Of a stretch of DNA of 64,000 nt, positions 1 to 37,068 are shown piece by piece (the first letter of the stretch is position 1; every line of letters starts with the position of its first letter). The DNA comes from Microthyrium microscopicum. Taxonomy: Eukaryota. The position numbers were made by a program, and so were the translations under genes. The notes beneath the pieces were generated by a model. That model searched no databases. It had not been told where the DNA came from and saw only the letters and a program-made list of their open reading frames with translations. The DNA is taken from contig MU004233.1 in NCBI GenBank assembly GCA_010405405.1, positions 313,067-377,066 of the forward strand, in the 5' to 3' direction.

Positions 1-2977
1 AAACTACTTAAAATTAAGTAAGCTAAGATTATATACTATAAAGTATAATAATAAATAATAAAACTTATTTTAATATTATAAATTATATCTTAACTAAGAA
101 GCTTTAATTAAAAATATATTATTTCCTAAAGAAGTTAACTAAATACTTAAATAGTATACTTATAACTATTTATAAAGTAGTAACTACTAAAGTAATAGTA
201 GTTAATTCTAATAAAATCTTAAAGACTAATAAAGTATTATTTTATATTATAAACTTACTATATTATATAATTATTATAAAAATACCTTAGCTTAAAAACT
301 AGAACTCTTTATTAAACTTTAAGGTTAAGACTTTATTCTTTATTTATCTAAAAAATAACTATTATAGTAAAATTAGCTTTATCTCTCTAAAGAAATTACT
401 TTAATTAAGTTAAAATAAATTTACTTAGCTCTTTAAGTATTTAATAGGTTTATTAGACTATACTAATTTATAAGACTTACTATATTACTATAAGGAACTT
501 ATAAAAGCCTTTAATAAAAATAAAATATAAGATTTAGTAGAATATAGTCTATAAGACTTAGCTATTAACCTTAAGCTAAGTATAAGTATACTCTATAAGC
601 CTATTTATAGCCTATTAGAAATAAAACTAGTTATTCTATATAAATACCTTAAAAAAGACCTTAAAAGAGGATTTATTTATAAATCTTAGTCTTTTACTAG
701 AGCTTTAATTATCTTTATAAAAAAAAAGAATAATACTTTATATTTATATATAGACTATAGAAACTTAAATAATATTATAATTAAGAACTATTATACTTTA
801 CTACTAATTAAAGAATTATTAAACTAACTATTAAAAGCTAAGCTCTATATAAGCTTAAACCTTTATAAAATATACTATTATATCTATATTTATATTAATA
901 ATAAGTAAAAGATAGTATTCTAAACTAAATATAAATCCTTTAAATACTAAGTAATATTCTTTAAGCTTACTAATACTTTTACTACTTTCTAAATATATAT
1001 TAACTAAGCTTTATATAGCCTTATTAATATAACTTATATTATCTATCTTAATAATATTCTTATTTTTTCTAAGAATAAAGAAGATTATATTAAATATATA
1101 AAGAAAGTACTTAAAAGACTTATTAAGTTTAAATTATATACTAAGCTATTAAAGTATAGCTTTTATATAAATTAAACTAAATATCTTAAATATATTATAA
1201 CTTTAAATAGTACTATAGTAGAACTAGAATAAATTATAATAATTATAAATTAGCTAACGTTACGTAATATATATTAAGTAAAAGAATTTATTAGCTTTAT
1301 AAACTACTATTAATATTTTATTACTAATTTCTTTTATATTACTTCCTTATTAAACTCTTTAACTAAGAAGCTTTTAAGGTAAACTCTAAAAGATTAATAG
1401 CTATATAATAAGAAATTAGTTTCTATTAACTTTTCTTCTAAAGCTATTTAATTCTTTAATAATCTAAAGGCTACCTTTATATATATATTAATTTTTATTT
1501 ATTATAATTCTATATTAAAAACTTATCTAAAAATAAATACCTTTAAGTAAGTAATTTATAATATTTTAAGCTAAAAATAAACTAAGCTAAGCTAAGAAGG
1601 CTAATAATAACTTATAATATTTTACTTAAAAAAGCTATTAAGACTTAAGAATTACTATAAAACCCTATAGTAGAAGTTTCTAGCTATTATTAACTCTATA
1701 AGAATTTTTTATAAGTACTTATATAATATTCTAAAGTTCTTAATTCTAATAGATTATATAAACTTTTATTTACTTAATATATTCTAAAATATTTTTATTA
1801 TATATATAAAATAAGTAGATTTCCTTACTAAGTTTAAGTTTAATATTAAGTACTATTTAGAGAAGATAAACTCTATAAATAGACCTTTATAAAGACTAGA
1901 CTATATTTTCTTAGGTAATATAAAGTAGAAAAAAACTATAAATATTTTATTAAACCTTATCTAAGATAAACTATAACTATTTAAAGCTTTTAAGTCTAAT
2001 AAAGACCTAACTAGATTTATTAATACCTTAATTATATTTATTAATACTTTATTATAGTATTTAAAAAATAATTCTTAAAAAGTAAATATTATTACTATAT
2101 TAGATATACTTAATAGCTCTTCTACTAAGCTAATAAAAAATAAATAAACCTATCTATAAATAAAGATTATTATAAAAGATAGTAGAGTTTAAGTTTTTTA
2201 ATATTTTTATAATAACTTCTTAAAAAGAGGCTATAAAGACTAATATAAAATATTAAAAAAGATTTAATACTATTATATTTAAGATAATATTAATAAGAAT
2301 ATTTAAGAATACTATATAGTCTATTTAAAGTATAAATAAAATATATCTACTAAATAAAACTAAAATAAGCTTTTTCTACTCTTACTAGTACTAATAGCTC
2401 TTTAGAAAGATATTATAGTTAATTTTATTACTAACTTACTTCTAAGTATCTTTTAAGAATAGCTATATAATTCTATTATAATAGTTATCTATAAACTAAC
2501 TAAAATAGCTTATTATATACTTTATTATAAAGATATAGATATAAATAATCTTACTAAGCTCTTTTTATATAAAGTAGTATAACTTTATAGTATACTAAAT
2601 ATAATTATATTTAATAAAGGCTTTATATTTATTTCTAAGTTTTAGAATATATTTCTTTACTACTTAGAAATCTAATAAAAGCTATTTACTACGTTCTAAC
2701 CTTAGATAAATAAATAAATAGAGCATTAAAACTAAAAAATTAAGTACTATTTATATATTTATTATAGCTAAAAGTAGAATAATTAAGCTAAAAAGCTTAA
2801 TCTTACTAAGTTTATATATAATAATAGTATATATAGCTTAACTAATATTACTCTATTTATAATATATATAGATAAATACTTATATATATTAGAAGAACTT
2901 AAAGAGTACTTAATAAGTATTACTCTTAATATAAAAGAATTAGTAGAATATATTCTATTTCTCTAAAGAGCTCTTTA

Positions 2978-11322: not shown

Positions 11323-11682
11323 TATTAGAGATTAAGGTTATAGAGTAAGTAGAAAGGTTATAAAATACTTAATAGATTAAATATATAGAAATAGAGATAA
11401 GAATAATTACTAAGAAACTATAAGAGAATTCCTTAACCTCTATTTTATTACTTAGAAACCTTTAAGATTTCTCTTTAAGCTAGAGTAGTCTATTTATAAG
11501 TTAAGGTACCTTAGAGGTATGCTTAGCTACTAATTATAATAGTTAAGAACTTATTAGTTCTCTTAACTATAGAATATACTAAAGCTAAAGAAGTAACTTT
11601 ACTAGCTTTTAATAGCTATTAGGCTAAGGTACTTAGGCTATAATACTTATCTTAGAGAGTCTATTAGGTTTAATTCCTAATA
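11323..11682 (-). repeat. 5' LTR of element B (360 bp)
   Basis: Direct repeat of 2978-3337, followed by TSD cttta. Confidence 0.92.
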
Positions 11683-13449
11683 CTTTAAGCTTATTTAAAA
11701 AATATTTAAATCCTATAAGCTAAATACTATAATAAAGGCTATAAGGATATTACTTTAAAGATAAATAACTAGGTTTTACTTAATATAAAGAATATTAAAA
11801 TAACTAAGTCTAAAAAGAAACTAGATATTAAGTATATAGGCTTCTTTAAAGTAATAGAAGTTATTAACTATAATATATATTATATTAACTTATTTAAGAG
11901 CGTTTTAGTTTATAATGTCTTCTATATCTCTTTATTATAATAATATATATTTAATATATACTTCTTATAATAAATAGTCTTACTTTAAAAAATCTTAGAT
12001 CTTAAAGAGACTAACTACTATAAAGTTAAAGATATAATTAAATATAAGATTAATAAAGATAATACCTATTACTATAAAGTAAAGTAAAAGAATTACCTTA
12101 TCTTAAAAGTAAGTTAAAAATCTACTAGTAATCTTTTCTTAATTATACTAAAACGCTACTAAAAGAAGTTAAAAAAAAAGGATATCTCTCTAACTAAATT
12201 AGCTCTAATAAAAGTAACTAAATATAACTTAAAATAACTTAACTTAAATAAACTCTATCTAAAAAATAAGAAGCTAAAGAAATATTTAAAGAAGCTTTTA
12301 ATACCTACTAAATTTATACTAGCTAAGGAAAGGCTAAGTAAACTAAATAGTTATAATAAGACTTAAAATAAGTCTTTTTTTATAAGAAAGATAAGTATAA
12401 AAGTATAATTACTCTATAGTATATATAGATATATAATAATAATTTATCTTACTTATAATTAAGATAAGCTTATTTAAATTAAACTAAATAGTACCTAAAT
12501 AATACTATTATAATACTTTAGAATAAATAGATTCTTATAGATATATATATAAATATAGTCTAAATAGAAAAGACTTAGAGAAAATTTAGAATTAAATATA
12601 GAACTAATTTTAAACTTAAATCTAAAACTATTAATATTACTTTAGCTTTACTTATTAATCCTTAAAGGAGTATTCTTTAAATACTTTAAAATAATAATTT
12701 TAGGTTTATAAAAATATACTTCTAAGTACTATCTAGGTTTATAAGAAAGAACTTAAAAATTTAAGAAAGTATTTTATTAAAAGAAACTATTTTATACTAT
12801 TTATATAAATTAATTTAAATAGAACTTAATAGCTACTAAGTATTAATAAATAGCTTATAATAAACCTAAAATATAACTAACTTTACTTATTAAATACTAG
12901 ATATATTAACTTAATACTAAATATATTTATTAGATACTATATTTACTTTTTAAACTTTTTAGTCTCTAAATTATTATTATTAAAATTAATCTAACCTATT
13001 ATAACTAGATAGTAATAAAGAACTACCTACTTACTTAAACTAAGCTTATACTTATTAATTTAATTCTAAAGGATTATAAACTAACTTATATTAAAAACTT
13101 TCTCCTTCTTTTTAGTATTATTAACCTATTAAAAAGTAAGTATCTTTATAACGTTAGTAAGCTTACTAATTTAATATAATAAAATACCTATAACCTAGAA
13201 TAGAGTTAATTAAAATCTAAGTAATATAATTAAAGTACTTATACTCTCCTAGCTACTATTTATAAGTAATTTAAATTTATAATAATAAACGTAAAGGTTA
13301 TTATAGCGCTTAATATAAGTAATACTAATAGTAGCTTTAAGTAGAGCTATTTTAAAGTAATAAATAGCTTTCTTAGCCTTAAGGATATTCTTACTATTTC
13401 TATAATATACTAGTATTATATAAATACTATTATATTTATTCTTAGTAAT

Positions 13450-13651
13450 TATTAGAAACCTACGGGCGTAAGGGTGTAAGCTAATAGTAGATATAATTTA
13501 AGAAAACTAATACGAAGAATCTAAGAGAAAGAGTAAAGAATAATTATAGGTAAGCTATACTAAATAATCCTTAGGCGCTAAGCCCTTAGTATTACGTAAT
13601 AAAAGATACTAATAATATTATAATAGGATTAATAGTAATAGATCCGTAATA
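13450..13651 (-). repeat. 3' LTR of element C (202 bp)
   Basis: Matches 20661-20853 + 28409-28417. The adjacent pyrimidine run at 13655-13665 is a polypurine tract on the minus strand. Confidence 0.88.
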
Positions 13652-16600
13652 ATACTCTTCTCTTTAAGATTAGTACTTCTAAGCTAAAAACTTATAAAAG
13701 GATAAGATTTATAATTAAGTTATATAGTCTTATAATTCTAATACTTTTAGGGTATAAAATATAAAATATAAAAAGTAAAGATAATATTCTTCCTTTATAT
13801 ATAACTACTATATATATTTATTCTTTATACTATTTTCTAGCCTACTAAAGTAACTATTAAGAAATATTAACGAACTTTAAAATATTTTTAGAATACTCTA
13901 GTTTATAGATTAAGTATTAAGGTACGTATAGTAGTATTCTTTACTATTTTAGGGAAAGTTTATCTAAATTATACTTCTTCTCTTTCTTTTTTTAAGAGTT
14001 TATAAATATAGAATATAGCCCTAGTTTATTAGGATTTTAGTTATAGTACTTAGTAATAAGTTCTAAATAAGAGTTAAGATTTAACTATAGTTACTAATTA
14101 GAGTTATAGTTTTAGTTATCTTATTTTATAAACTAGACTTTATACTATAAAACCTTCTTCTTACTAAAGCCTTTTATAATACCTATCTTATTATTAATAA
14201 TATAGTTAACTATCTACTCCTACTTTATATTATTATTTATATTTATAATTATAAAGGAGTTATCTAGTTCTTAAAGTATAGTAATATATTTAGAAATAAG
14301 ATAAAGTAGCTAAGTATAAAAAATAGAGTAAATCTTTATCTTCTCTAGTAGTTCTAGCTTATAGGTAAGAATATTAATCTTCTTAATAATCTTAAAGAGT
14401 TTTATAAATTTATTATTAAGGAATTTTAATAGTTAAAGAAATTTATAATAATAAGTATTAAAGTATACTTAATTACCTAGTTTAAGGTTTAGTACTAGTT
14501 AACGAGTCTTATTAGCCTATTTTTTTATAAGGGCAATAGACTATAAGATCTATTCTTAGAAATACTTATAAAGATTAGTATAAGTATAGAGATATTAGTT
14601 AGTAAGTTACTATTTAGTTTAGGTTAGCTTAGTTCTTAAGTAAGTCTTTAGAAGTATTAGTTCTAATCTTAATTAAGAAAGATAACTATTAAGTATACGA
14701 AAGGGACTTATTTTAGTAAAGGCGTAAATAACGTAGTTAGTTTTAAACTTAGTAAATAATAGTAGTTCTATCTAGTCGTTCTATTACTAGTTAATAAAGT
14801 ATCTAAAGTAAGCTTTTAATATTATAACTAATATTTCTATAATATTATTACTTTATAGATACTAAGTAGTAATTAGGTAGATAATAATACTAATACGTTT
14901 ATAGAGACGTTACTAAAATATAGATATAAATTATAAATTATAGTTAGAAAGAATAGAGTTAGACTATTTAGTATATTTCTAGATTTAGTTAAGAAACGTA
15001 AGAACTATTATTTATATACTTAAGTTAAAAAGAAGTATATATTATTAGGTATATATTAGCCTATTTATAACAACTATAATATAATAGTAGATAGTTTTAA
15101 GATAAATATAAGGTAGTAAAGTAACTATAAAGTTAATAGAGATATTAGATTAGGCGTAGTTAAGTAATAGAAATAACTAGAGAAGATCCTACTTTTTTTA
15201 TTTAACTAGCTTAGAGAACGCATACTTATATACTTTTATATAGTATTTTATATCTTTAGCTATATAGGGCTAATAGTAAAATTAATAAAAACGCTAGTAT
15301 ATAGAAGCTATATTATTATAACCTATTACTTTATAATTATATATATATTTAATAGCATAGTATTAGAGACGTTTTATAGGAATAAGAAGTTATTATCTAT
15401 ATTAAATAGTATTATTAGTAAGTACTTAGTAATTACTAAGTTTAATTAGGTCTTTTTTTAGAGTACTATATAGTAAGCAATATAATTATATAGCTTTAGA
15501 GTTATAGATTATTTAGATAAGCTTATTTAATTAGCTAGCCTTAATAATATCTTTCTATAATATCTTTAGATTAATTAATATATTATCTATTTTAAAGTAA
15601 TTAATTAGCTTACTTAGAATTAGGATAGAACTCCTTATAGTTAGTTAATTAATTAGCTTACCTTTTATAGTTAGCGCATTAACTTTATTAGTAATAATTA
15701 TAGTAAGTTTAATTATTATAGGTTATTTATTATTAATAAGAAGGATAGCAATTTTAATAGTATATTAAATATTATAAGAATAAGAGATTTCGTAGTAGGT
15801 ATTAAAGTTATAAGAAGAAAAGATTAGTTATATTTATTAGGTAATCTATAGATTATTATTAGATTTTAGAAAATCTTATAATCTTTAAGTTAGCATATTT
15901 ATTTTTACGTTAAAGAGACTATTATAATATTTAATCTTAAATTAGAATTAGAAAAGGAACTTTATCTATTAAGTTTAATAATAAGATAGCTTTTTAGTTA
16001 ATATAAAAGTACGTAAGTTAAGATAGTTAGTAAAAACCTATATAGAGTTAAAGGTTAAAAATAATTTAAGTTTTTATTCTTTAAACGCTTATATAATTAT
16101 AAGTAGCTCTTTATTATAAATGTTATAATTATACTTTACTAGAATTATCTTTTTAGAAAGAAAAGCTACTAGATAAAGCTTACTATTTACGCCCTTTTAA
16201 GAAAGAATAGCTACTATTATTTAGTCTAAGGCATTAGTTTTAACCTAAGTCTTAGTATTAGGATTAAAATAATAAAAGATTAAAGTAATAGTAAAAGCCT
16301 TCTTTAAGGCGTTAAAAGCTTATTCTTTAGGTCTAGTCTTACTTTATAAGAAGTATAAGGAAGCGTCTTTTTAAATTAGTATAATAAGTAGTATAATAAT
16401 TTTTAAGTATTCTTTAATAAAATAGTAATAGAAGTTTATAAAGCTAAGGAATATTTAGATATTCTTTAAAGAAATAGAGTAATACTAATTAAGTATAGTA
16501 TTAACCTTCTTTTTATTTATTTAAATTCTATTAAGTATAATAATAATACTAAGATATTTAACTAATTAGGTTATAAACTTAGATTTAGAAATATTAAGGT

Positions 16601-19600
16601 AAAGTCTAGCTTTTTTAAGCTTATTAAGAATTAAGTAAATATAAGTAATATATTCCTCTTTAGTCTTACTCTAAATAAGGACGTTATTAAAGTAGACTAT
16701 AATAAAGTTATTAAAGTATTTATATACTATACTATTAATATAAGATTAAAAGCTTTTTAGTAATTTTATTATACTAAATAGTATTACTAAGGTTTTAAAA
16801 AGTCTATAGCGTATTAAGAACGTAATTTTATATTTATTCTCTTTATAAATTTAAATATTATTAAAGATAGTAATAATATTAAATTATAAAAAGAATTTTA
16901 CTTTATAAATCTTTATTAAAGTTTCTATTAAGAACAAAAGTATATTTTAGTTAATTAGTATAATCTTATTAAGTTTATAGTAGTTAATATAGATATAAAT
17001 ACTATTACCTAGTTTACTAATATATAATATAGATATAGCATAATAAGAGATACTTAGTTAGATAAAGCTTTTTCTAAGTATATTTTTAATATATTCCTTA
17101 ATAACTTATACTTATTAGTAAGATATATTATAGAATTTACATATAAGTACTTTTATATTTAGGTTAGTAGTAATAGTATAGTTAAAGCTTAGTTAGTATA
17201 GTAGTAGCTTATTAGTTTAGTAGAAGTTAAATAAAGAGATATAGTAATAGAATTTTAGTAGTATTAATTTTAATAATTCTTCTTATATTAGTAGGTTATA
17301 ATTAAGCTTTTTATACTATTTAGTATAGTTTTTAGTAAAGATTATAGTAATATTAATAACGTTCTATTAAGGAATAGGATTAAGGTCTTCTTCTTCTTCT
17401 AAAGTAATAAAGTCTTCTTAGTAAAGAGCTATAAAGTAGTAATCTTTATATTATATTATAGCTATAAAGACTCGTAGTAATACTATATAGATATTAAGAG
17501 TTCCTTCTTATCGTTTATTTATAATTACTTAACCCTTATAGTTAATAGTTATTAAGTAATAGAAAGTTATATAGTATTTTATATAATGCTTAGAGTAGAA
17601 GCTTAATATATATTAGCCTTCTTAGAGTATAACTTTATACTTATTTATTTATAGATTACTAAGGATTATATTATAGTTAGTAACTTTTATTATAAAGTAA
17701 AGAATCTATTTAAGGTAGATATTAATACATAATATAATAGCTACTATATAGGTTATTTTTATAATAGTATAGTTATTAGCTATTTTAGCGTAGTAGAGTT
17801 AAATTATCTTTACTAATAGAATACTATAAATTTAGAAGTAATAAGGATTAATAATACTAAAGACACTACTACCTATATTAATTAGGACTTTTATTTTAGT
17901 ATATACGTTATTATTAATAAGAATATTACTAGTAGTACTTTACTATTAGCCTATCTTTAAAATAGAATATTTTAGTAATTAGTTAATAGGAATATAGATT
18001 ACTAATATATAAATAATAGCTATACTTATAGAAGTACTTTTAATTTTAGAGTTACTTAAATAGTTAATAATAGCCTCTATTTAATATTTTTATTATTTAT
18101 TATATACTTCTATTTTATTTAGCTTTTTTATATAGCATTATAAAGGAGCGTTTAGTTTTCTTAGTCCTAGTAGTAATAATTATTATATATTAATAAACAA
18201 TTATACTATAGGGTTAGGTTTTATAGTTAGGTATTATTTTATTATAGATAAATACTAATAAGCTTAGTAGAGATATTAGAATTAGAGAAGGCTAATTTAC
18301 TTTTATACTTTAAGTTTTTATTTTTATAGTTATAACCTTATTTACTATATTAGATATAGCAATAGTCTCGTATTAGATATTAGTATAGAGTAATTTTATA
18401 GCGTAATATATAGTTAATTTAGTTATTAGTTTAGTTACTATTATTATTATTTTAATTACTAGATAGCTTATTCTTATTATTAGTTTTACGTTTAAGGTTT
18501 TAGTTAATAACTTATAACTTATTAATATATTTAGTAATAGTAGTAGCTTTAAAAAGAAATAGGTATTATATAATTTTTTTAATAATTATATATTTAAAAT
18601 AAGTAACCTTATTTACTTCTATAAAGCTAGCGTTAGTAATTTTATTATTAAACTTAGTAATATATAGAGCAAGCTTCTTAGTTTTTTTTATTTAGTTTAA
18701 AGAATTCTATAACTAGGTAATAACGTCTTTATAAGTATTATACTTTTAGGTATATTAATCTAGGTCTTTCTAGAACTCTATTATATTAGAATATAAGTTT
18801 AGTAATTTATATTATATATAGTTTTTAATAAATCTAAAGGTAATATTAAGAGTTTTACTATATACTTAAATAGTAGCATTTAGTTCTATAAGGAAAGAAG
18901 CTTACTTATTATAAAGATAGTCTTTAATACGAAGCTTTTATATAAGATATTATTTAAAGTTACGACTAAAGTATTTACTTAGATTACTTTATTTACGTTT
19001 TTTACTTTTACTATTAGCTAAGGATCTAGATACTATTAGAGTTAGGCTATTAGTTTTAATATAAGAAGCTTATTAATAAGAAGAAGGTATTACTTACTTA
19101 TTATTAGAATTAAGTTAGTAGATATTCTCTTTAGATTTATATACAAACTAACTAAGCTAGTTTTTAAGATCTTTATTCTAGAGACAAAAAGCTATAATCT
19201 TATTATACTTCTTAATATAGAAAGTACGTAGTTATTTAATATTATTAAGTACTTTATTAAGTTTTTATTAATTTATATTATAAGTATTCTTTAAATAGAG
19301 AACATATTTATTATCCTTATAGTTAGCTTTAATTATATAGTTAAGTTATTAGCAAAGTTAATTCGCCTTTATATATATTTTATTAACTACAACTATAGTA
19401 TTATTAAGTTTATTAGTTATATTTTTAATACTTTATTTATAATATTAGTAGGTATCTATTATATTATTTAATTAAGCATAAGTCTTTTAAGTATAGAGAT
19501 TAGCTACTTAGGCTAATTTAATATAACTATATAGTTATTTAAATTATATTTTTAGTAATATTATAACGCTATAAAGGAATTCTTTATAAGTCTTAATAAC

Positions 19601-20660
19601 TTTTAGATATAAGTTATCCTAAGTATAATATATAAGTATAAAGTCTAAAAAGACATTTTTAATAGTACTATCTAAAGAGATAGTTTTTTAGGCTTAGAAA
19701 GTAACTTCTTTATAGAGGAATTATATTAAGAATACTTAATTCTTCTTATTAGAAGTAATTAATTAGTAAGTAATAAGGTAAGAGAGTATTTAGTAATTTA
19801 ATAGTAATTCTTTAATTTAGGCTTAGTCTACTAGTTAAAGAGTAGCAATTAAAAGATTAGTAGAAAATGCCTTCTCTTTACTTTTATTTTAGAATTATAA
19901 TTAGCTATAAATATAGCTACTCTTAGTAATTTCTAGAACGTTAAATAGTAAAGATATCTTAACTATAGAGTTATAATAGAAGTATAAAGAATTATAGCGC
20001 AAAGGTTAGCTATAAGATAGTTCTATTATAGTATTATTTTTATTACTATTAACCTTAGTCTAAGTATAAAGTAGTATAATTATAGACTAAGTAATATTCT
20101 AAGTTCTTAATTACTATTACTTATAAAAATAAAATATAGAGCAAGTTTTATAAGTTTTAATAATGTCTTTTATAGTAAGATAAGGATTTAATATAAAGTA
20201 AGTATAAGTAATAAGTATAAATATTAAGAAGTCTTAAAATAAAGTATAGATAGGTTATAAAAGTATAATAGATAATTTAGAAAAAGGAGTAAGAAGTTTA
20301 ATTTATTATAATTTATCTTTAGGGCTTATTATAGTATAGTAGAATAAGTAAAGTTTTATTATAGATATAGTAGTAAAGAGAAGTAGTAGTAGTAAAGAAA
20401 GATTATTAATTTATAAGTCTAGTAGAGTAGAAGTTTTAGGTTAACTAGAGTCTTTTAAGCTCTTTAATTAGACGTTAAGAATCTAAGCTTCTAGTAGAGT
20501 TAAGAGTTAGAAATTTATATATTTACTACGCTAGTAGGTTAGATCTATTAAGATCTAAAAATAGAATTCTATATTTATATAGGTAAATATATTAAATCTT
20601 TAGATTTTAATACGCTAAATATTAGGATTATTTTTTAAATAGTATAAGGTATTAGTTTTA

Positions 20661-20853
20661 TATTAGGAACCTATAAGCGTAAGGATATAAGCTAATAATA
20701 GATATAATTTAAAAAAACTAATACAAAGAATCTAAGAAAGAGAGTAGGAAATAATTATAAGTAAGCTATACTAGATAATCCTTAGGCGCTAAGCCATTAG
20801 CATTACGTAATAGAGGATACTAATAATATTACAATAGAATTAATAGTAGTAGA
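20661..20853 (-). repeat. 5' LTR of element C (main part; last 9 bp displaced to 28409-28417)
   Basis: Direct repeat of 13450-13642, interrupted by element D. Confidence 0.88.
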
Positions 20854-21015
20854 TATTATAGGTTAGATAACAAAGAGATAAGTTATATTATAAGCCTACT
20901 AAATAGAAAAGTAACTTAGAGAGAAAAAAGAGTTAAAAAACTCTTTAACTAAGGTATTTATATATAATAGGAGTAGCCTAAATAGGCATAGCTTTAGAAA
21001 GTTTAATCCTTAATA
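20854..21015 (-). repeat. 3' LTR of element D (162 bp)
   Basis: Direct repeat of 28242-28403 with RIPed TG...CA termini. Confidence 0.92.
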
Positions 21016-21541
21016 TTACCTCCTCTATCTAAAAAATTCTAGCTAAAATACTAAGTTAATTATAAGATCTTAATCTTATTTAGCTATATTTAATACTTAC
21101 TATTTTTATAGTTTATAATAAAGCTTCTATTTATAATATATAGATCTATACGTTTACTTTTAAGTATAAAATATAAAGCTTAAGTTATTAACTATTAGTT
21201 CTATACTAGTATTTTACCTATTTTAAACTAAATTTTAGGTATAAGGCCTTTTTCTTAGTATATAATATTAGTTCTTTTTAGTTATAATCCTATAAAGGTT
21301 ACTTAATTTATAAGTTATTTTATTTATGCTTAGTTAGAGCTTTATTATAATATTAAGAGATAAGATTAAAAAAACATAACTACAATTAAGTTACTATATT
21401 TCTATTTATATATTTAGAAAGTATAAAGTAATATTATTCTATAAAGTTAACTATTCTTCTTTTATTATACTTTAAATAAGCTTCTTCTCTTCTAATTAGT
21501 TCTTATTAAGTTTCTTTTTTCTTACTTAATTAATTAATTAG

Positions 21542-22450
21542 GTAAGTTATTTATTATAATAACTATAGCCTTACTAACTATATAGAGATAGCTACCCTAA
21601 TTATTAATGTTTTTAATAATACTATTAGCTTTAATAGTTATATCCTTATTACTATTACTTTTATTTATATATTTATTATTAACTATAATGCTTCTTTACC
21701 TTATCTACTTACTACGCACAAGGTAGCTATATATAAGGCCTACTAGAACGATATAAATAAAAGCCTTTATCTTCTTAACTAAGTCCTACTTTATTACTAG
21801 AATAATATTATTTATAACCCTTATTTCTATTTACTAACTACTCTTTAATATAAGAAGATATATATAGTTATTAATTACTATAATCTATAAAACTATACTT
21901 TATTTAAGGCACTTTATATTAACTAGACTATACGTACTTTTTTAGCCTTTCTTAATTTATACTAATATATTTATAAAGTAAGGCCTTTTATATTATAACT
22001 AACTATTCTTCTAACTTTTTTAATAAGCGTCTTAACTTATTAAACGCTTTTTTTAAAGGGTTTACTAATAATTTATAGCCTAACGTTTATAATATTATAA
22101 TTTATTAAAGCTTTCTTAGTATAATTTAATTAACTAGTAGCTAGGCTAGTTATCTTAAAGCCTTAGGTATTTATTATATAAATATCTTATAATTCTTTAT
22201 TAAAAATAAGTAGAATAAGACTTATAAGGAGTAATATTATACTTATTATATTAGCGATTCTAATTTAAAGAATTAGTTATAATATATAGGTTATATTTAG
22301 CTTTTAGGATTTCATAATAATATATATTTAAACTATATTTATAATAATAATATTAGCTTAGCTAAGAAGTATCTTTATAATAATAAGAAAGAGGTTATTA
22401 AAAAAATTAAGAATTTTTTACTATTAATTATCTACTTTAGTCTTTCTATA
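21542..22450 (+). pseudogene. RIP-degraded intron-containing extra gene antisense to pol in element D, with a Cys-rich DUF3716-like motif
   Basis: Introns 21542-21585 (GTAAGT..ACTAAC..TAG) and 21930-21976. The frame from 21588 is stop-free for 52 codons. 22238-22336 de-RIPs to C-T-H-C-x14-C-IQLPGFHDG.-C-S-N-C. End is approximate. Confidence 0.6.
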
Positions 22451-25400
22451 TCCTAAGGTACTACTTAGGTTTTTCTTTCTTAGTAGTAGAGGTTTATTAG
22501 GTATATCTTATTTTTTTAGTTTTCTTATATTTTTATAATTTTCTAGTTTTATTTAGTAAGAAAGAGGGTCTTAATATAGATAAAAGAAAAGTATTTCTAT
22601 ATATAAGTTATAAATAGTACCTCTAATTATATCTCTATAAAGTTAATTACTATAATAAGAAAGCTAGTTTTTAATCTTAGTTATATTTAAAGAATAGACT
22701 AATTTAGTACTAATCTTTTATAATTATTTCATATATATTTTATCTTCTCTATCTACTTTATATAAGCTTTTAACTATTTAATAAAGTTAATTAGTTCTTT
22801 TATTATATTTAAATAATCTACCTATTTAATAATATAGACTATATAGAGTTTGCTCTTTATTATCTTCTTATATTTTTTAGCTATAATCTCCTTTACTAGC
22901 TACTTCTCTTATTCTTTTCTATCTAAGTCTTTAACTAAAATTAGTAATAGATAAGAATTATTAGTATCTTAACTTAGGAATAGGTTATTTATTACTAGTC
23001 TAAGTAAGTTAATATAAAATTTCTTAGTTCTTTATAGTATATTTAGTATAATTATATATAAGCTTATTATCTTTATAACTTAAAACTTAAAATAATAATA
23101 ATTAAACTTCTTCTTTACTTATTTAGTCTTAGTATTTTTTAAGTCTAGCTAGATTTAATTACTAACTTTATACTTAAGTATTTAGATCTTTATTTAGTTA
23201 GCTTATTTCTATATTTTTTCTTAGATAAGGATTATAGTATCTTAAGTCTATTTTATAGCTTTTAAAATTATATAAGTAGCTTCTTTTCCTTTTTTTCTTA
23301 AAGTATTCTTCTATTTAGATAAAGAAGCTTATTTAGAAAAGTCTAAGAAGATAAAGTTTTTAAAGCTATAGGATAAAAAAAAGAATAAAAGTTTTATTAT
23401 AAATAAATATTATAAGTTAAGTATAAGTTAAAGTATTAGTATTAGTAAGAACTAGTTTAATTATATATAATTTATATATATTTATACTTTAGCTTTAATA
23501 TCTAAGTTTTACTATTCTATAGAGCTATTTATTTAGAAATAAAATATAGTTAATAGCTATAACTCTATTTATAGTAGTATATAGAACTTTATTTAGAAGT
23601 CTTTTATAAATACTAGATTATAATTATAAATAATTATATTAGAAATACTATAAAGAAAATAGACGCATTATAAGAAAATAACTATAATATCTTTAATTTC
23701 TCTCTAAGTAAAGAGAATTAGGATTACTTTTTTACTTAGCTAATTAGTAATAACTATTAAGATTATATATCTATTTAATAAAAGAAGGTTTATTATAAAA
23801 TTTATAGATAGTTCTTACTATTATTAGCTTAGAATAGGTAGAGACTTTAGAAAGCCTTTTTTTTACTTATAACTAACCTTTAATTAGCTATATATACTAT
23901 AATTTTTTATAAAATACTTTATATTAGCTATAATTTTAGGCTAAAAGAAATATAGCTATAAAGCTTAGTAAATTTCTTTATAGCTAGAATAGCCTTAAGT
24001 TAAAGATATATAAGCTACTTATAATATTATTATTTATAAAGATTCTAAGTTTAGAATCTATAATTATCCTCTTTAGTAAAGATAATCTTTATTATTAATT
24101 AAGTAGTTAAGGATAGAGATTTTAATACTTATAATTAATAAAGAAAACTTTTATCTACTAGCTTTAATTATTTAATAAACTACTTAATAAGTATTATTAA
24201 CCTATACTACCTTATTTTACTAAGTTACTAATAGTTTAGAAACGTTTAGTATTAATAGTAGTAAGCTAGAAATTAAAGCTTTATTAGCTAATTAAGTCTC
24301 TACTAGTTTATCTTTAACTACTATAGAAAGAATAATAATATAGATAAGTAAAGCTTATAGTAATTTAAGTAATTAATCTCTTTAAATATAAAGTAGTTAG
24401 AAAGTTCTAGCCTAGATCTTCTTATTAGCTACGTTTTAGAGTATATCTTATTTATAATAAAAAAAACTATCTACTATACTATTCTATAAGCCTAAATAAT
24501 ACTTAATTATTATATTATACTTTATAAGTTTAATAAACTATTAAATATACCTTTCTATAAGCTTTTATAGTTTTATAAAATACTCTAGGTTTTTATAATT
24601 AAATATTACTTTAAATTTTTCTACTACTTATAGCTCTAAGTCCTATTCTTTTAGAATAAATATAATTATAAGTATCTCTTTATTATAAATTAAGTAGTTA
24701 CTTTAAGTAAAGTTATACTTTTTAAAAAAATAGGCTACTAGTTAAAATTTACTTATTTTATTCTTTTATACTAGTATAGCTTCTAAAAAGTAACTAAAAG
24801 AGTTAGTATAGATAAAAGTCTCTTTATTATAGTTAAATAAAGCTAGTATCTAGTTAATAATAAAGAGCTATTTTAGCTCCTTAAATATAGCTTTCTTTAG
24901 GTCTTTAAATAAAAAGAAAATATCCTTCTAAGTAAGTTAAATAAGAGGTTTTATAATTATTTAAAAGTTTAGTATAAACTTATAATAGAAATTAGTAAAG
25001 CTAAGGAAAGCTTAAACTTTATAAATATTCTTAAGAGCCTCCTATTCTTAGATTACTTTAACTTTAGCTAAGTCTATTAAGATTCTTTATTTAGCCTTAA
25101 TAATATAACTTAAGTATATTATTTAAGTAGTTATAAATTTATACTTCTAAATATTAAGATAAAGTTTTACTTTTTATAGCTACTTAAAGACTTTATAAAT
25201 ATAGGCTTTATATTACTTCCTAGTACTTAAGCTAAAGATTAAGACGTTATCTAAGTATATAAAAATATAGTTATTTAAGATATCTTAAAGAGTAAAGTTA
25301 ATAAATCTCTAAAAAATACTTAGAGTATTTAATAATCTAAATAGTATTACTATCTATTTAAATAAGCTATATTATATCTAAAAAGTTATCTTCTACTTAT

Positions 25401-28241
25401 TATTCTTATATATCTAAATCTTATAAAATACTTAAGATACATCTAATTTAGTAAACTATTATACTTTTTTTAAGGTATTTAGTATTTTATAAATAAATAG
25501 TAAAAAGTAATAATTCTTTATAGTTAACTTATTTAATATATAGTAGTTATAATAAAATTAAATTAATCTATCTACTTTATAAATAAAAAGAACTAGTACT
25601 CTAGTAAATAAGTTACTTACTTAAATAAACTTACTTTCTAGTAGATTATTAAGAATTCTTCTAAGGATTAATAACTTATCTTAATTTATAAAATATAATA
25701 TCTATTAAGATAGCTAAGGTTCCTTTCTATTAGTATTTAGGATTAGATTAATTTTATAGTTTATAAAAGAGCCTTAGATAAGTAGCTATTTATTAGCTAG
25801 CTCTTTTTAAAAGAGGTTAAGATAATCTAAATACTATTTAGAAAGCTTTTTATAAGAATTAATATACTTCTTAAAAGTAAAGGCTTTCTATAAGTTATAA
25901 AGACTTATAGTAAAGACTTATATAATTAGTATTAAGCCTTTTTAAGACTATCTTACCTACTTTCTAGCTTATTAAGTAAGCATCCTAAATACTATAGTTT
26001 TAATTACTATATAGTTATACTTTTTCTAAAGAGTCATTAGACTTATAATTATATAACCTATTTTATTAAAGACTAACTTCTTAAGTTTTATATAAAGAAT
26101 AATATTATATTTCTTTATCTAAGATAGGCTAAGGATTATATTATAGTCTAGAGTCTCTTTTACTATAAAAGCTTAAATAGTTTCTTTATAGCCTTTAATA
26201 TTAATTTTTATAATTACTATTTTATAGATTTCTTTAGCCTTACTATTTATTTCTTTAATAGAAATTACTTAAAGTAGTAATATACGTTTAAGTTTATATC
26301 TTTAGATAAAGTAAAAACTTATAAAAGAATAAGTTAAATAGCTACTATTAATAAAGCCTATATATAAAAAAAATTAATTTACTATTAAAGATATTAAAAA
26401 AGGCTCTATAATTATATTTTAAGTAAAGAACTTCTAATACTATTTTAAAATAATATTTTTATAATTTTCTAGCTTAGTATTACGTCTTTAATCTAAGCTT
26501 ACTAGTTTTCTAATTTTATATTAGTAATATTATATAGATTATTATAAAGGTTATTATTTCTTAGCTAAGTAATAATAGCCCTTACTAGCTAGCTACTTTA
26601 GGGAACGTTTAGAATATTAATAGTACTAGCCTAGAATTTACTAGTATTATCTTATAAGTATTTATCTTTAGTAAAGCCTTCTTTACCTTATCCTTATCTA
26701 TAGCTAACCTAGTTATAAAAGGAATTTTAGTTTCTAGATAACGTTTAAAGTACCTATTTATAGTCCTAAATTCTATAATTAGCTAAGCTATAATAAAAAT
26801 AAAGGTTATTTTATTTATAGTAGTTATACTAGGTTTAGCTAGCTCTAATCTAAATACCTTCTATTATATTTAGGTTTTAATTTCTAGATAGCTAAGTCTA
26901 CTAAGTACTTATTTTAGTATTTAAGCCTCTTAGACTATAATAGCTTATATAAGCTTAAACTATTTAATCCTAGGTTTCTAAAGCCTCTTAAGTAAAGGTA
27001 TCTAAGTTACTAAGCTAAGAATAAGTAATTAAGGCTATTCTAAAATTAGAATTTATAGTATTTTTTAAGAACTATATCTAAATAGAGGTAGCCTAAAATT
27101 ATACTCTAGTATAGATAAAATACTACTAAAACTTAGCCTAAAAAATTCTCTATTTTCTACCTCTCTACTAGATCTCTTAGAAGTTTACTAAAGCTCTTAT
27201 TTCTTTATATAAGTTATAAAAAAGAAGATCTATCTATTCTATAAACTTACTAAAACTTAGAATACTATAGCTAGTAAAATTCTAAATTTAGGAAAGAACT
27301 TATTAAGTAATATTTCTTATAAGCTAGCTAAATATATAGTAGATTTAAGCGTAGTTATTTATATAAATCTATTTATTAATATATAATTTTACTTTAATTA
27401 TTTAGTAAAAACTAGAGTAAAGAGTTAGGTCTTTATATAAGTATTATTCTAGGTTTAGAAAAACTAGTTAAAGGTTTTATAATAGTAGTTAAAGTAGCTT
27501 ATATTAAGTAGTTAGAGAATTTATTAAAAAAAATAGAGAAAGAACTACTAGTCTAGCTATTATAATTAGAGTTTAAAAAGGATTAGCTTATAAAATTAAA
27601 GAAAGGTAGTAGCTATAGTTAAAAGTTTCTTTAATAAAAAGTATAGCTAGTATTAAAGAAAAAGTTATACTAAATATTATAAATTCTCTCTAAAGTTATT
27701 CTTATTCTTACTACTACTATTAGGTTAGCGTTTTATAAATAGTATTATTTACTTATTATATAAAGATCTTATTACTAGTATAAATATTAGTAAGCTATTT
27801 ATTCTAGCTATTAACTTAGGCCTAAAGTTTAGTATAGACTACTATAATCTATTATATATTCTTATTTAATTATATATAAATTTTACTAGTTAACTTATTT
27901 AGTTATTATAAAGCTTATTTATAACTAATAGTAGTTATACGTAATTATAAGATAGATAAATTAAGTATATTATTAAATAGTAAAATACTATCTATTACTT
28001 ATTATAAGTTATTATTAATTACCTTTTAGGATATATTTAAGTAGTTTTATAGCTCTATCTATTATTAGTTAATATATATAAAGTATACTTCTATATTCTT
28101 ATAAGTAAAGCCTTTAGAGAACGTTTCTCTATCTTATCTAGTAGTTATTAAGTAAGAAAAATCTTAGTCTACTATTTTAGCTATTTATTAATAGATAAAG
28201 AGGAAGTAGGTAAAAAGAGGAGTTAGTTTAAAGTTACTTAA

Positions 28242-28403
28242 TATTATAAGTTAGATAACAAAAAGATAAGTTATATTATAAGCCTACTAAATAGGAAGAT
28301 AACTTAGAGAGAAAGAAGAGTTAAAAGACTCTTTAATTAAGGTATTTATATATAATAAGAGTAGCCTAAATAGGCATAGCTTTAAAGGGTTTAACCCTTA
28401 ATA
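28242..28403 (-). repeat. 5' LTR of element D (162 bp)
   Basis: Direct repeat of 20854-21015, followed by TSD gtaga. Confidence 0.92.
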
Positions 28404-30164
28404 GTAGATCTATAATAGTAATACTAAAATATAAAGAAAAGGTATTATTTATAGTATTAATATAAATATACTTATTTATATTAGTTTAAACCTAAGTATA
28501 ATAAAAGAATTTACTTATATCTAAATAGCTTTTATAACGTCCTTATTAATAACGTAAACTATTTTTTTAATATAAAGGAGCTAACTTATATTATACTTAC
28601 TTAGATTATTATTATAGATTTACTAATAAAATATATAGACCTTTAATATATTATAATACTTTATAAGAAAGTCTTTAATAATACCCTTCTTATAAAGAAT
28701 AACCTAAAAAATAGTTAATAATAATTAGATTTAAATTAAATTAATTAAAAATAACTTACTTAAACCTTAAAGGCTAATATATAGTCCTTATAAGCTATAT
28801 AGTACTAATTTTTTAGATTAGTATATAAAAAGATTTTAATATATACTTTAGTATATTACTAATATAAATTAAGTATAAGAAACTATTTAATAATTAACTT
28901 AGTCTTATTCTTATATAAAATAGACTTATTTACGTTAAATAGTTCTATTTTATTATTATTAAAGTTATATAAAAAACGTTTATTACTTAATTAACTATAA
29001 TTAATTAATATATTATAAATAAGAAAGGTCTAGTATAATTTAAACTAAGTCTAAGCCTTATTAGTACGTATAATATTATTAAGACGTATTTACTTTATAT
29101 TAAGCTAAAAAAGTTTAGACTTATTATTATAGTTATACTTAGAAGCCTTTTTCTTCTTTTTAGTCTAAGTAGTATTCTTTTTAACTTCCTTAAATTTAAA
29201 AGACTTTAAAGAGAAGTAGCCTAAACTTAATAGCTTAATATAGTTATTATTAGTATTAATTTTAGTACTATTAATAAATTTAACTTAATTAGTTACTTTT
29301 TTAGTAGTATTAGTATTAGTAGAATTAGCTAGTTTTATAACGCTAATAATTAAAGTCTTTAATAAAGTAATAGTATTTTTAGAAACTTTAAAGGTATTAA
29401 ATAAAGATAAATTAGATCTATTTAGAGCCTTATTAGCTCCTACTTTATTCTTTATAGTAGCTATTAAAAAGAATAAATATAAAAGAGTATAAAGTATACT
29501 AAGTAGATTTATAAAGAAGCTATTAGTAGAATATTAAGACTACTAGCTAGGACTTATTTTTATACTATAGCTTTATTTATAAAGGTTAGCTTTACTTAAT
29601 TAGTTAAGGTTTATTTAGGTATATACTTTAATTTTATAAAAGTAAGATAAAAAAAAATTAGAAAAAGTATATAATTATAAGATTAAATATACCTTATTTA
29701 ATATTCTTCTACTTAATTAGGTTAGTAAAGGATAAATATTTACTTTATTAAGTACTTTTTATTAAGAAAAGCTTTAATATTAATTTTTACTATAGGTAAA
29801 GGTTCTAAAAAGAAAAGTTGCCTTTAATAAATAATAACCTATAAATTAGGTAGGCTTAAAGTAATAATCTAAAGAAACTTAAAAATGCTTAAGTCTTTAA
29901 TAAACCTAGATAAACCTAAATAAGTACTTAATAATAATATTTAGCTTTATAAATTATTATTTAAGGAGTATTCCTTTAAGTAATATTTAAAACTAATAAT
30001 AAGTTTACTAAGATTTACTAAGATTATTATCTAGCTAACTAAATAGTAACTAAGTAGTTTATACTATTATAATATAATATACTTTAAAGTATATTAATAC
30101 TATTAGAACGTAGTTAACCCTTTAGAGACCTATAAGAACATTTAGGTTCTTATTAAGGAAATAA

Positions 30165-30524
30165 TATTAAGAATTAAACTTAATAAACTTTCTAAGATAG
30201 GTATTATAGCCTAAGTACCTTAGTCTAATAGCTATTAAAAGCTAGCAAAGCTACTTCTTTAGCTTTATTATATTCTATAGTTAAAAAAACTAATAGGTTC
30301 CTAACTATTATAATTAGTAGCTAAGTATACCTTTAAGGTAGCTTAGCTTATAGATAGACTACTCTAGCTTAGAGAAGAACCTTAAAGGTTCTTGAGTAAT
30401 AAGATAGAGGCTAAGGAATCCCTTTATAGTTCCTTAGTAATTACTCTTATCCTTATTTTTATATATCTAATCTATTAAGTGTCTTATAACCTTCTTACCT
30501 ACTCTATAACCCTAATTTCTAATA
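30165..30524 (+). repeat. 3' LTR of element A (360 bp)
   Basis: Reverse complement of B's LTRs, same length, preceded by the purine-rich aaggaaataa. Confidence 0.92.
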
Positions 30525-33500
30525 ATTAGCTAGAATTACTAGTACGTAAAAAAGAACTTTATAATGTTTCTATATCGTTTCTATTCTATCTACTCTTAGA
30601 ACTAGTAGACCTTAATAGTAAAGTTATATTACTTACTAGTATAAAGCTTTTATTTATATAGGCATTATATAGAGTTAGACTAGAGGTAAGGAAATAAATA
30701 TTAGTAGTTCTTTAGGATAATCCTAATAATTCTACTACTCTTTAGCAATATTATATATTAATATCTAATAATAAGCATCTAGACTAATATATTAAGTTTA
30801 TAGAAGAAGATTAATTCTTTAAATAACTATATACTATATTAGTAATTAATTAAACTATAGTATTACGTTACTAGTCTATTTAAAAACTTTAAGATTAGCT
30901 AGTAGAAGAACTTATAAATACTAATATAGAAGTAAGTTAATTAAGTAAATTAGTAAAAGTGCTATAGAAAGAGGTAGCTACTTATTAATAGATAATAATA
31001 GATTTTAAAGCGCTTACTAGCTAAATTTACTATAACTATAAGTTAGTACTAACTACTACTTATTTAAATAAATAAGTAGCTCTTACTAAATTAGTAAAGA
31101 AGCATAATACTAATTTATAATATTATAAGTTAGTTATTAACTTTTGCTACTAAGTCTAAGAACTTAAAGATAGACTTTAAATAAATTTAAACTAAGCCTA
31201 CGTTAATCTAAATAATTTAGAGAATAATATCTTCTTAGGTTATTTTATACTATAAGTAATATATCTAGTAGTTTTATACTTATAACTTTAAGCTTAAGAA
31301 ATACGCTATATCTTACTATTATTAGTAGCTAATAATACCTCCTTAGTAATACTTATAAAGTTTAAAGAACCTAGTAATTTTAAAGGTAAACCTACGTACT
31401 ATAAATAGTAGAAGAAGAAGATATTAAATATACTTCTTAATAAGAATATATACTTATATATCTCTATTAAAAAGAAGAAGATTAAGTTTATCTATATCTA
31501 TTATACTAGCCCTACTTATAGTATTATAATTATATATAAAGATTATAAGTTAAAGAACTCTTATAGTACTATAGAAAAGATATAGGTAGACCTAGATAGT
31601 TATTACTACTCTAAGAACGCTTTTAAAAATACTAAAGTATAGTTAAAGTCCTTAAATACTAAGATAAAAGATATAAAAGGTTTTTAAACCTTTATTAGCT
31701 ACTTCTTAATAAATTTAGTAAATATAGAACTATCTAAGTATAAAAAGATTATTAAATTATAAGATCTTATTAACTATAAGTTTATAAACCTACTAGTAGG
31801 CTAGTATTTTAGTAGTTTTACTATATTTTATACTTAACTTTACTTAGTTACGTACTAAATTAATTATAAACTTACTACTATAAATAATATCTCTTATAGC
31901 TATAATAATAATTAGTCTACTAATAAAGAGGCCTAAAATAATAAAATTAATAACGTTAACTATTCTATAGACATCTTTAATACTTTAAAAATAGATAAAT
32001 ATTACGTCTATTATAAATAAAAAAGTTACTACTACTTTAATAAGATTTTACTATATAAAGATTAAGAACTCTTATTTAATAATAAGATTAAAGCCTTAGT
32101 TATACCTTTAGTAATAATATTTATAAAAGTTTAAAAAAAATAATAACCCTTTATAGAGGATACTACTAAGAATAATAATTATTAGTCTTTAAACTAGTTG
32201 CTTCTTTACTAAGCTATAAGGAGGAGCTAAATAAGACTAAAGCGTATAATAAAAGAAAGAAATATACCTTTAATACTAATACTAAGTATATAAAAGATAT
32301 ATTTTATTAATATAATAAAGAGTAGTACTAAAATATTAAGAAAGCTAAAGAAATATTCTATTAGGCTAAAGAAGATTATAAGAATATTAAAAAGAAGATA
32401 TAAGAGAAGACTAAGAAGCTATTTAGCTACTTTTATTAGTATATTTAGCGCCTTAAGTATAAAGATACTATTTATAAAAGATAAGTCTTACTAATATATT
32501 TATATACTATCTATATCTTACTAGCCTCTATTATACTAGTAGTATAGCCTTAGAATATTAAAAAGAAAGATTCTATTATTAGATTATAATAAATTACTAT
32601 TAGCTTAGTATTTATACTATAGCGTTTAACCTACTCTAACGCTAGTATTTTAATTAATACTAGTAGTAGCATAATAGGAATTATTAACTCTTATTATCTT
32701 TAGTAATATAGTATTTCTACTTTTTAACTTATATATTTATACTTAGTAATACTTACTAATAGTAAATTAATATTTATAATTAATAAAGCTACTATTCTTA
32801 ATTTACGTATTAAATACTATATTAAGTAAATTAGCTATTTTATTATAAAAGTAGCTTCTTATAACCTAATCTTAGGAGTATCTTAGCTAGATTAATATAA
32901 AGTTAACCTATATAGAGAATTAAGAATATTAACCTTCTATAGTATAAGATATATTATAAATTATATTATATTATAACGCTTAATTATTATAGACCTAAAA
33001 GGATAATCTATAAACTTAGAATTACCTAAAAAATTAAATATTACTTTTATATCTATAGTAGTATTTAAGAAACTAATAAAGTATAAAGATACTATAGTTA
33101 ATATATTCTAGTTTAAAGATTTTAATAATAAAAAAGAAAAGAAACTTCTTAATAGTAATAAAGATAATAATAATAGGTTTATTATAAACCTTACTATATA
33201 TACTATATTAGAGAAGGATTATTTTAAATAGTAAGATAAGTAAGATTACTCTTATTTATTAAAAAAGAAAATCTTAAAGCTTATTCTAGAACGTTTCTAC
33301 TAATATTTTAAAGTCTTTAATCTAAAGCGTTTAGATATCTTTATACTTTACTATAGTAAATATAACTATGTTATTAATCTTATCTTTAATGCTAAAATTC
33401 TAAAACGCTAACCTATATTAATATTACTAAAGTAAGCCTTAGTTATTAAATAATATATTAAAAGCCTATTTTAGTAAGGCTTTACTATAAGTTTAAAATC

Positions 33501-36500: not shown

Positions 36501-37068
36501 TTAATTTCTACTAGTAAATAAAGTTAAAGAAAAAGATTATAATACTAATAAACTACTTATAGATTAGAATTATATAATATAAAAAGTATTATATTTATTT
36601 ATTTTTACTAATAGCTTTATACTCCTAGTTTAGTTTTTAATTTATATTACTAAAGAAATTATAGAATACTATAAACTAGCTTAAATAAATATTCTCTTCT
36701 TTATTAAATAGATTTAGATAGTACTAAGGTAAGTTAATAGTATATTACTATATCTCTTAGTAGTAATATATATAAAGAAGTTTTATATTTATATAGACTA
36801 GTTTAGCCTAGTCTAGATTAGCTTAGACTAAACTAGAATAAATTAGATTAGAATATAGCTTATAAGGTCTATTTTAGAAAGAAAGAGTTATATAAGAAAT
36901 TCTTATAGATTTAGTATTATAGTATTTAGATATAGAGATCTAATTTTATAAATAAAATCTTTTTATTCTATTTAAAATTAGTATATCTAAGAATTCTCTA
37001 GACTCTATATTTTTATATCTATAGCTATATTTCTAAATCTCTTCTCTTTATACTTAGATCCTATAATA
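30525..37068 (+). mobile_element. Element E: RIP-degraded Ty3/Gypsy chromovirus (gag-pol and probable 3' LTR); probable host of element A
   Basis: Gag remnant at ~31000-32190, protease LIDTG at ~32650, RT at ~33350-34100 (KPGGGIRVC.DYRKLN, YLDDILIFS), RNaseH (NY.IYDKELL), integrase at ~35200-36200, chromodomain at ~36300-36490. Polypurine run at ~36876-36887, then a candidate LTR at ~36891-37068. The partner LTR is not in the window. Confidence 0.82.

Follow-up and report, generated by a model that had tools for sequence, protein, structure and literature searches.

A Ty3/gypsy retrotransposon saturated by repeat-induced point mutation holds the remains of a coding region, probably antisense, between pol and the 3' long terminal repeat

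The window analysed here is a 64,000-nt stretch of Microthyrium microscopicum DNA (NCBI GenBank assembly GCA_010405405.1, contig MU004233.1, positions 313,067 to 377,066 of the forward strand), in which position 1 is the first letter. At 20854-28403 it contains a long terminal repeat (LTR) retrotransposon of the Ty3/gypsy type, here called Y, whose spacer between pol and the 3' LTR was formerly protein-coding in two reading phases. Y lies within the first 38 kb of the window, an AT-rich block to which the periodicity, intron-motif and Cys-motif scans described below refer. The block has 19% G+C and its indices of repeat-induced point mutation (RIP) are near saturation [TpA/ApT 1.64, (CpA+TpG)/(ApC+GpT) 0.05; the gene-bearing half of the window has 0.69 and 1.33]. 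Y itself, with values of 1.67 and 0.03, is mutated by RIP to saturation. Its parts are as follows.

20854-28403, pol on the minus strand: element Y, a complete Ty3/gypsy LTR retrotransposon
20849-20853, no strand: left copy of the target-site duplication GTAGA, inside the 5' LTR of a second element, X, at the outer end of that LTR
28404-28408, no strand: right copy of the target-site duplication GTAGA, read from the sequence
20854-21015, minus strand: 3' LTR of Y, 162 bp, from self-blastn
28242-28403, minus strand: 5' LTR of Y, from self-blastn and the collapsed comparison
21016-21030, minus strand: polypurine-tract-like run, minus strand AGATAGAGGAGGTAA, which adjoins the 3' LTR and fits a minus-strand element
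22735-22899, minus strand: chromodomain-like end of pol, recognized by eye (...YIIK-X-V-D-Y..., after reversal of RIP compatible with Y-L-V-K-W-x-G-Y)
24526-24897, minus strand: reverse transcriptase (RT)-associated RNase H of pol (Pfam RT_RNaseH_2, E = 3.7e-10; RT_RNaseH, E = 1.1e-08)
26065-26337, minus strand: weak match to a retroviral aspartyl protease (Pfam RVP_2, E = 0.011, 16 bits, under the curated cut-off)
26760-26801, minus strand: gag zinc knuckle, now Tyr codons, from a scan for RIP-capable C-x2-C-x4-H-x4-C, with codons that could have been Gly where a knuckle usually has Gly

Because gag and pol are on the minus strand, the left LTR of Y is its 3' LTR. The two LTRs differ at 13 positions, every one of them a transition (13/13), and are 100% identical once C>T and G>A changes are collapsed. 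Y is a Ty3/gypsy LTR element and chromovirus-like, the chromodomain being assigned by eye; the hallmarks of the group that it retains are the LTRs, the target duplication, the RT-RNase H, the weak protease and the RIP-capable CCHC knuckle. A six-frame Pfam search of Y, with X placed at stop codons, returned RT_RNaseH and the weak RVP_2 match only, and RT, rve and Chromo went undetected. The Chromo model matched none of the elements in the window, though chromodomain-like stretches are visible in them by eye. Integrase SH3 tails (SH3_Tf2-1) were found below threshold in X [13651-15000 (-), E = 8.2e-05] and in a further element, Z [35400-36900 (+), E = 2.2e-05].

Between the chromodomain-like end of pol (~22735) and the 3' LTR of Y lie ~1.7 kb, as reported in the initial annotation, a first reading of this DNA made from its letters alone, which had proposed for this spacer an antisense, spliced gene with a Cys cluster. 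As a measure of coding we used the triplet periodicity of the purine/pyrimidine (R/Y) string, taken in 300-nt windows as a chi-square on 2 degrees of freedom. RIP makes transitions only, so that the R/Y string is still that of the ancestor; periodicity is valid as evidence of former coding because RIP can neither create nor erase it. The chi-square reaches 26.9 at 21451-21900 and 17.8 at 22051-22400. Over all 300-nt windows of the 38 kb, which are mostly former gag/pol, the 95th percentile is 15.0 and the 99th 24.0, and the higher of the two spacer values matches the strongest gag/pol windows in the block. A likelihood scan puts the onset of the periodicity at ~21560-21600, the best breakpoint for a switch of phase at 21977 (within 2 log units across ~21960-21995) and the end at ~22420-22440. 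These landmarks coincide with the start codon, the start of exon 2 and the end proposed in the initial annotation, and the gene model for the spacer reads:

21542-21585, plus strand: intron motif GTAAGT...ACTAAC...TAG, 44 nt, from a regular-expression scan, ending 2 nt ahead of the putative start codon
21588-21929, plus strand: putative exon 1 of 114 codons, 6 of them stop-like; its first codons, ATA GCT, are what RIP could make of ATG GCT
21930-21976, plus strand: putative intron 2, 47 nt, RIP-degraded, its borders uncertain; phase-switch breakpoint at 21977
21977-22456, plus strand: putative exon 2, ~159 codons, ending at a stop-like TAA (22454-22456)
22238-22336, plus strand: Tyr-rich cluster, RIP-reversible by its codon ancestral sets to C-x2-C-x14-C-x3-P-G-x5-C-x-N-C

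The purine fractions at the three codon positions are 0.57/0.44/0.24 in the first block and, in the frame of the initial annotation, 0.58/0.59/0.34 in the second; the third position is pyrimidine-rich in both blocks if, and only if, a two-base shift of frame is placed between them. Stop-like codons in the plus frames number 6/114 in exon 1 (5.3%) and 10/157 in exon 2 (6.4%), rates that fall in the lowest 3-5% of 5016 windows. The present copy of the coding region is now full of stop codons, and the gene is dead in this copy of Y.

Periodicity alone cannot decide the strand, because the triplet phase is the same on both. The plus strand, antisense to pol, is favoured as the probable one, not as a proven one. 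The motif at 21542-21585 is where the initial annotation had placed intron 1 (GTAAGT at 21542, an internal ACTAAC and a TAG ending at 21585, 44 nt in all) and it has every feature of a fungal spliceosomal intron (GTAAGT, ACTAAC, YAG, a length of ~40-80 nt). The strict form of this motif occurs three times in the 38 kb, each time on the plus strand, where 1.1 matches are expected on both strands together. One of the three stands just before the onset of the Y periodicity and the other two are in the corresponding spacer of another family, A; all three are thus antisense in pol-to-LTR spacers, which is unlikely by chance because such spacers make up only ~5-7% of the searched sequence. Scans of the minus strand of the Y coding region with the strict and the relaxed intron motif found none. 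The initial annotation had also pointed to ATA GCT ACC, which is present at 21588; an ATA GCT at the onset counts for the plus strand because RIP turns ATG GCT into ATA GCT. Over both exons together, 16/271 codons are stop-like on the plus strand vs 22/271 on the minus strand. What stands of the proposed antisense spliced gene is therefore a former coding region in two phases with a perfect plus-strand intron at its start, the strand being favoured only.

Several results weigh against a spliced antisense gene in the spacer. A codon-class strand test on the R/Y string, trained on nine host open reading frames (ORFs), favours the minus strand (-8.2 bits for exon 1, -3.8 bits for exon 2), which would suit a third ORF on the sense strand, downstream of pol and in two frames other than that of pol, with the plus-strand intron motif a coincidence. 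The identity of triplet phases on either strand leaves room for such an ORF, and plant elements with a sense ORF downstream of pol are known, according to the extracts available of PMC7264820. The test, however, mis-calls the gag of Y itself (-4.9 and -10.9 in two of three chunks, the knuckle-bearing chunk included) and is right in only 6/9 chunks of Y pol, for which reasons we regard it as weak; on chunks of host genes the true strand scores +4.3 (sd 6.1) and 87% of calls are right. The fraction of first-position purine in the minus reading, which is equally that of third-position pyrimidine in the plus reading, is 0.745, and on either reading this lies above the maximum of 148 host windows. 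A sense-strand ORF would also have to do with the higher number of stop-like codons and with a strand devoid of the intron motif, its frames across the spacer gave no match in Pfam, and ~300 nt of non-periodic sequence separate the coding region from the end of pol. We consider such an ORF quite unlikely.

The introns of the antisense model have difficulties of their own. In each kb of either strand, 7.9-9.7 RIP-tolerant intron patterns begin, and intron 2 is indistinguishable from chance. Of the claim that a second intron at 21930-21976 keeps the frame, the phase switch at that place holds; the motif, being common by chance, is no evidence in itself. An intron at 21965-22014 (50 nt) would produce the same phase shift, and the switch could be an indel instead of an intron. 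Upstream of intron 1 there is no periodicity, for which reason intron 1 would lie in the 5' untranslated region, 2 nt before the start codon, an unusual position.

The Cys cluster was proposed from a Tyr-rich stretch of codons, and the letters are as had been listed: TAT ACT TAT TAT at 22238-22249, then 14 codons, then TAT ATT TAG CTT TTA GGA TTT CAT AAT AAT ATA TAT TTA AAC TAT at 22292-22336. Every residue of the back-translation is within the set that can be reached by T>C or A>G reversal, and of the 15 reversals required, 13 occur in a canonical CpA/TpG context. Ancestral TGY codons for Cys now read Tyr because all TpG is gone. The gag zinc knuckles show this conversion: those of Y [26760-26801 (-)], family A [10092-10133 (-)] and X [19623-19664 (-)] are now Tyr codons with a single Cys codon left, in X, so that the conversion of Cys to Tyr is general here and the Y knuckle serves as an internal control for it. 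In these knuckles hardly a Cys or His codon has escaped conversion to Tyr by RIP. A further RIP-capable C-x2-C-x4-H-x4-C pattern, on the sense strand of the family-A spacer and found in both of its copies [4503-4544 (-) and 28957-28998 (+)], may be due to chance.

The RIP-reversed cluster is compatible with the presumed Cys pattern of the fungal family DUF3716. In a flexible form the Cys motif is found at five loci in the 38 kb vs 1.33 expected, two of the five being copies of one family-A locus; when the codons of the ORF are shuffled, 3.3% of 20000 shuffles contain it. The family-A matches, at 5255-5359 and 13226-13333, were rejected as stop-rich and off-frame. An 11-residue core of the presumed consensus, P-G-F-x2-G-A-C-x-N-C, is found nowhere else in the 38 kb and arises in 0.05% of the shuffles; it serves as a lead and not as a test, because the consensus is a presumed one and was fixed after the sequence had been seen.

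Searches for relatives of the putative product came back empty. Pfam, DUF3716 (PF12511) included, gave no match at E <= 10 for either exon with X at stops; an exhaustive phmmer search with exon 2 found 0 matches at E <= 0.001 among 1.84 billion representatives, a word-indexed protein search with exon 1 gave 0 at E <= 1, and a search of the PDB gave 0. These negatives weigh little, because Pfam also misses the RT, integrase and chromodomain of Y itself. The former product may have belonged to DUF3716, although we would sooner doubt it than assume it.

The empty searches would also suit the view that there was never a gene here, and that periodicity, intron motif and Tyr cluster are chance products of AT-rich, RIP-mutated DNA. 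By chance alone the 38 kb should hold about one strict intron motif, RIP-tolerant intron patterns abound, and the loci with the flexible Cys motif number five, with two of them copies of one family-A locus. Transitions, however, cannot make R/Y periodicity, here as strong (26.9) as in the best windows of gag and pol, and the onset, the phase switch and the end of the signal are three independent landmarks that match features named beforehand. We regard the absence of any gene as highly improbable.

The last point against the proposed gene is that it occurs once. R/Y-collapsed blastn found the cargo nowhere else in the window, and in a RIP-aware ungapped scan of the window the best non-self score was 13.2, with shuffled queries at 10.9-16.0. 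Since the cargo is seen once in the window, its carriage by the family as such is not established, and the statement that the family of Y (family D of the initial annotation) carries cargo is not supported: the window holds a single copy of the element, and the cargo was not found elsewhere in it.

Antisense cargo in two distinct families, as a recurring module of fungal chromoviruses, had been proposed as well. The spacer of family A [3759-4854 (+), with a second copy at ~29135-29539 (-)] does have a comparable open and periodic frame and strict intron motifs; the recurrence is tempered by the single copy of family D. The family-A plus frame at 3963-4457 has 2.2% stop-like codons and is among the most open frames of the AT-rich block, and the chi-square at 4001-4340 is 22-25. 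Both strict intron motifs of this spacer are antisense; the one at 3759-3789, matched over 31 nt, seems too short for a working intron. The family-A cargo had no match in Pfam, and a word-indexed protein search with its two aligned copies gave 0 matches; BRTN, the product of the antisense gene brtn of the Botrytis element Boty, was returned by none of the protein searches with either cargo. Homology between the cargoes of families D and A was rejected as far as the method sees (RIP-aware Smith-Waterman, z = -0.6; positive control, the integrase regions of Y and X, z = 7.2).

A coding region that is real but private to this copy of Y, either a transduced fragment of a host gene or a piece of a nested mobile element (for example of the DUF3716-carrying REP9 type), is to be considered here. 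Such an origin would agree with the single occurrence of the cargo in the window and with element X, which has the same layout and only ~0.4 kb between its chromodomain-like end and the LTR. Transduced ORFs occur in one or few copies of an element (PMC7264820, in the extracts available), and a class II transposon is known to carry DUF3716 genes (PMC8232023, likewise from extracts). The segment, however, is not delimited by terminal inverted repeats, LTRs or duplications, a search of the spacer for inverted and direct repeats as borders of a nested insertion having given AT-rich noise only. The whole of Y, spacer included, lies within one target-site duplication and between LTRs that differ by transitions only, and family A has an analogous spacer gene in two copies. 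A private origin thus appears unlikely.

The elements of the AT-rich block are nested. Y (20854-28403) interrupts the 5' LTR of X at its outer end; X starts at 13450 and lies in an inverted family-A copy (pieces 30564..28399, 13457..11683 and 2977..2); a full family-A element at 2977-11682 (LTRs 2977-3337 and 11322-11682) is inserted in the same inverted copy. In X, a plus-strand frame at 18812-19531, antisense to the gag region, has only 2-4% stop-like codons; the periodicity near it is strong at 18151-18750 and 19151-19500, and all of this could be no more than a mirror of gag in the same phase. At ~37900-38200 the RIP-saturated DNA (19% G+C) gives way abruptly to normal genes (47% G+C). The first of these, a DJ-1/PfpI-like gene (38224-38979), begins no more than a few hundred bases from the border, and the gene-bearing half beyond it contains ordinary Pezizomycotina genes (among them HET, fungal transcription factor, kinase, methyltransferase, Band 7, carboxylesterase). 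In a homology search the HET protein had at most 58% identity to its best match.

The statements of the initial annotation about the sequence are thus confirmed, and its interpretation is partly supported. The reading we prefer, to which we give somewhat better than an even chance, is that Y is a complete, chromovirus-like, RIP-saturated Ty3/gypsy element whose 1.7-kb spacer contains the ruins of a single additional gene, running opposite to pol. The promoter of this gene would be located either within 21016-21540 or in the 3' LTR. The 44-nt intron at 21542-21585 would be followed by the start codon at 21588 (ATA, formerly ATG), exon 1 would run to ~21929 and, after an intron of ~47-50 nt, exon 2 would run to ~22456. 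The predicted product has ~270 residues, and its C-terminal part would probably be Cys-rich and metal-binding (probably zinc), perhaps nucleic-acid-binding. Transcription from its own promoter, in or beside the 3' LTR, would converge with that of pol. An antisense gene can retain its introns when the element transposes, since its coding strand is not that of the genomic RNA. The protein would probably have acted on the element's own cycle, regulating or assisting retrotransposition; another possibility is that RNA silencing was fed by the antisense transcript.

If this gene model is right, antisense, intron-bearing accessory genes occur in several fungal Ty3/gypsy families, beyond Boty. A more specific reading is that a fungal chromovirus lineage has an intron-bearing DUF3716 gene, in antisense orientation, in its spacer from pol to the 3' LTR, a nucleic-acid-binding domain having been recruited independently by different classes of mobile element; we hold this as tentative and rather doubtful. 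Were such recruitment true, many 'orphan' DUF3716 genes of fungi would be transposon cargo or its domesticated descendants, and a large fungal family of unknown function would gain a transposon-borne, probably zinc- and DNA-binding context in which its function can be tested. Our literature search for DUF3716 and PF12511 returned no report that ties the domain to LTR retrotransposons. There is also a methodological use: homology searches are blind in RIP-saturated DNA, and R/Y periodicity recovers former genes, their frames and their changes of phase.

The closest known layout is that of Boty, an element whose extra gene brtn was reportedly described by Zhao et al. in 2011 (Virology 417:248), as cited in later papers. 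In Boty-like elements of Botrytis and Sclerotinia, brtn is an antisense gene between pol and the 3' LTR (PMC8365987 and PMC7264820, extracts of both); Boty and brtn are also cited and described in PMC4227169 and PMC5987419, the latter with a BRTN-like transcript in Monilinia. Further extra ORFs occur in elements of B. cinerea (extracts of PMC8365987). Broader literature searches returned no fungal case of an antisense ORF beyond Boty. Antisense additional ORFs between pol and the 3' LTR, termed aORF-3R, are described for several plant families in the extracts available of PMC7264820, where a regulatory protein or an antisense RNA in silencing are discussed as their roles. The arrangement had been called little-described in the initial annotation; that description is not supported, as such ORFs are in print for Boty and for plant families.

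Boty, like Y, is a Ty3/gypsy element of a fungus; it has gag, a zinc knuckle, protease, RT, integrase and a chromodomain (in Y a chromodomain-like stretch seen by eye), and its extra gene runs opposite to pol in the interval before the 3' LTR, as is probable for the Y cargo. The likeness drawn here between brtn and the Y cargo is one of layout; unlike Boty, the present copy of Y is RIP-dead and lies in a host other than Botrytis. The plant aORF-3R (Grande gene23, RIRE2, Retand, PvRetro13) share with the Y cargo their position and the antisense orientation that is probable for it (PMC7264820, in the extracts available), and the same extracts give them a promoter of their own upstream, as we infer for Y, and no clear database homologues. 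For some of them a nuclear or DNA-binding role is suspected there. They differ from the Y cargo in their plant hosts and unrelated sequences; introns within them are not described in the extracts of PMC7264820, a review that calls for looking at spliced antisense transcripts.

DUF3716 (PF12511) of Pezizomycotina is, in the portions available of the sources, a short Cys-rich module of small fungal proteins, linked in print to the binding of telomeric sequence and with at least one mobile-element case, a gene in the class II transposon REP9 of Zymoseptoria (PMC8232023). That element is a DNA transposon, whereas Y is an LTR element. A more distant analogy, and an analogy only, is HBZ of human T-cell leukaemia virus (HTLV), an example of retroviral genes expressed in antisense from the 3' LTR, which lies near that LTR and is spliced and regulatory (extracts of PMC7264820); HTLV differs from Y in belonging to a host of another kingdom and in having no sequence relation to it. 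The cargo of Y is most likely a member of the aORF-3R class and brtn-like in its layout, which is already known from Boty.

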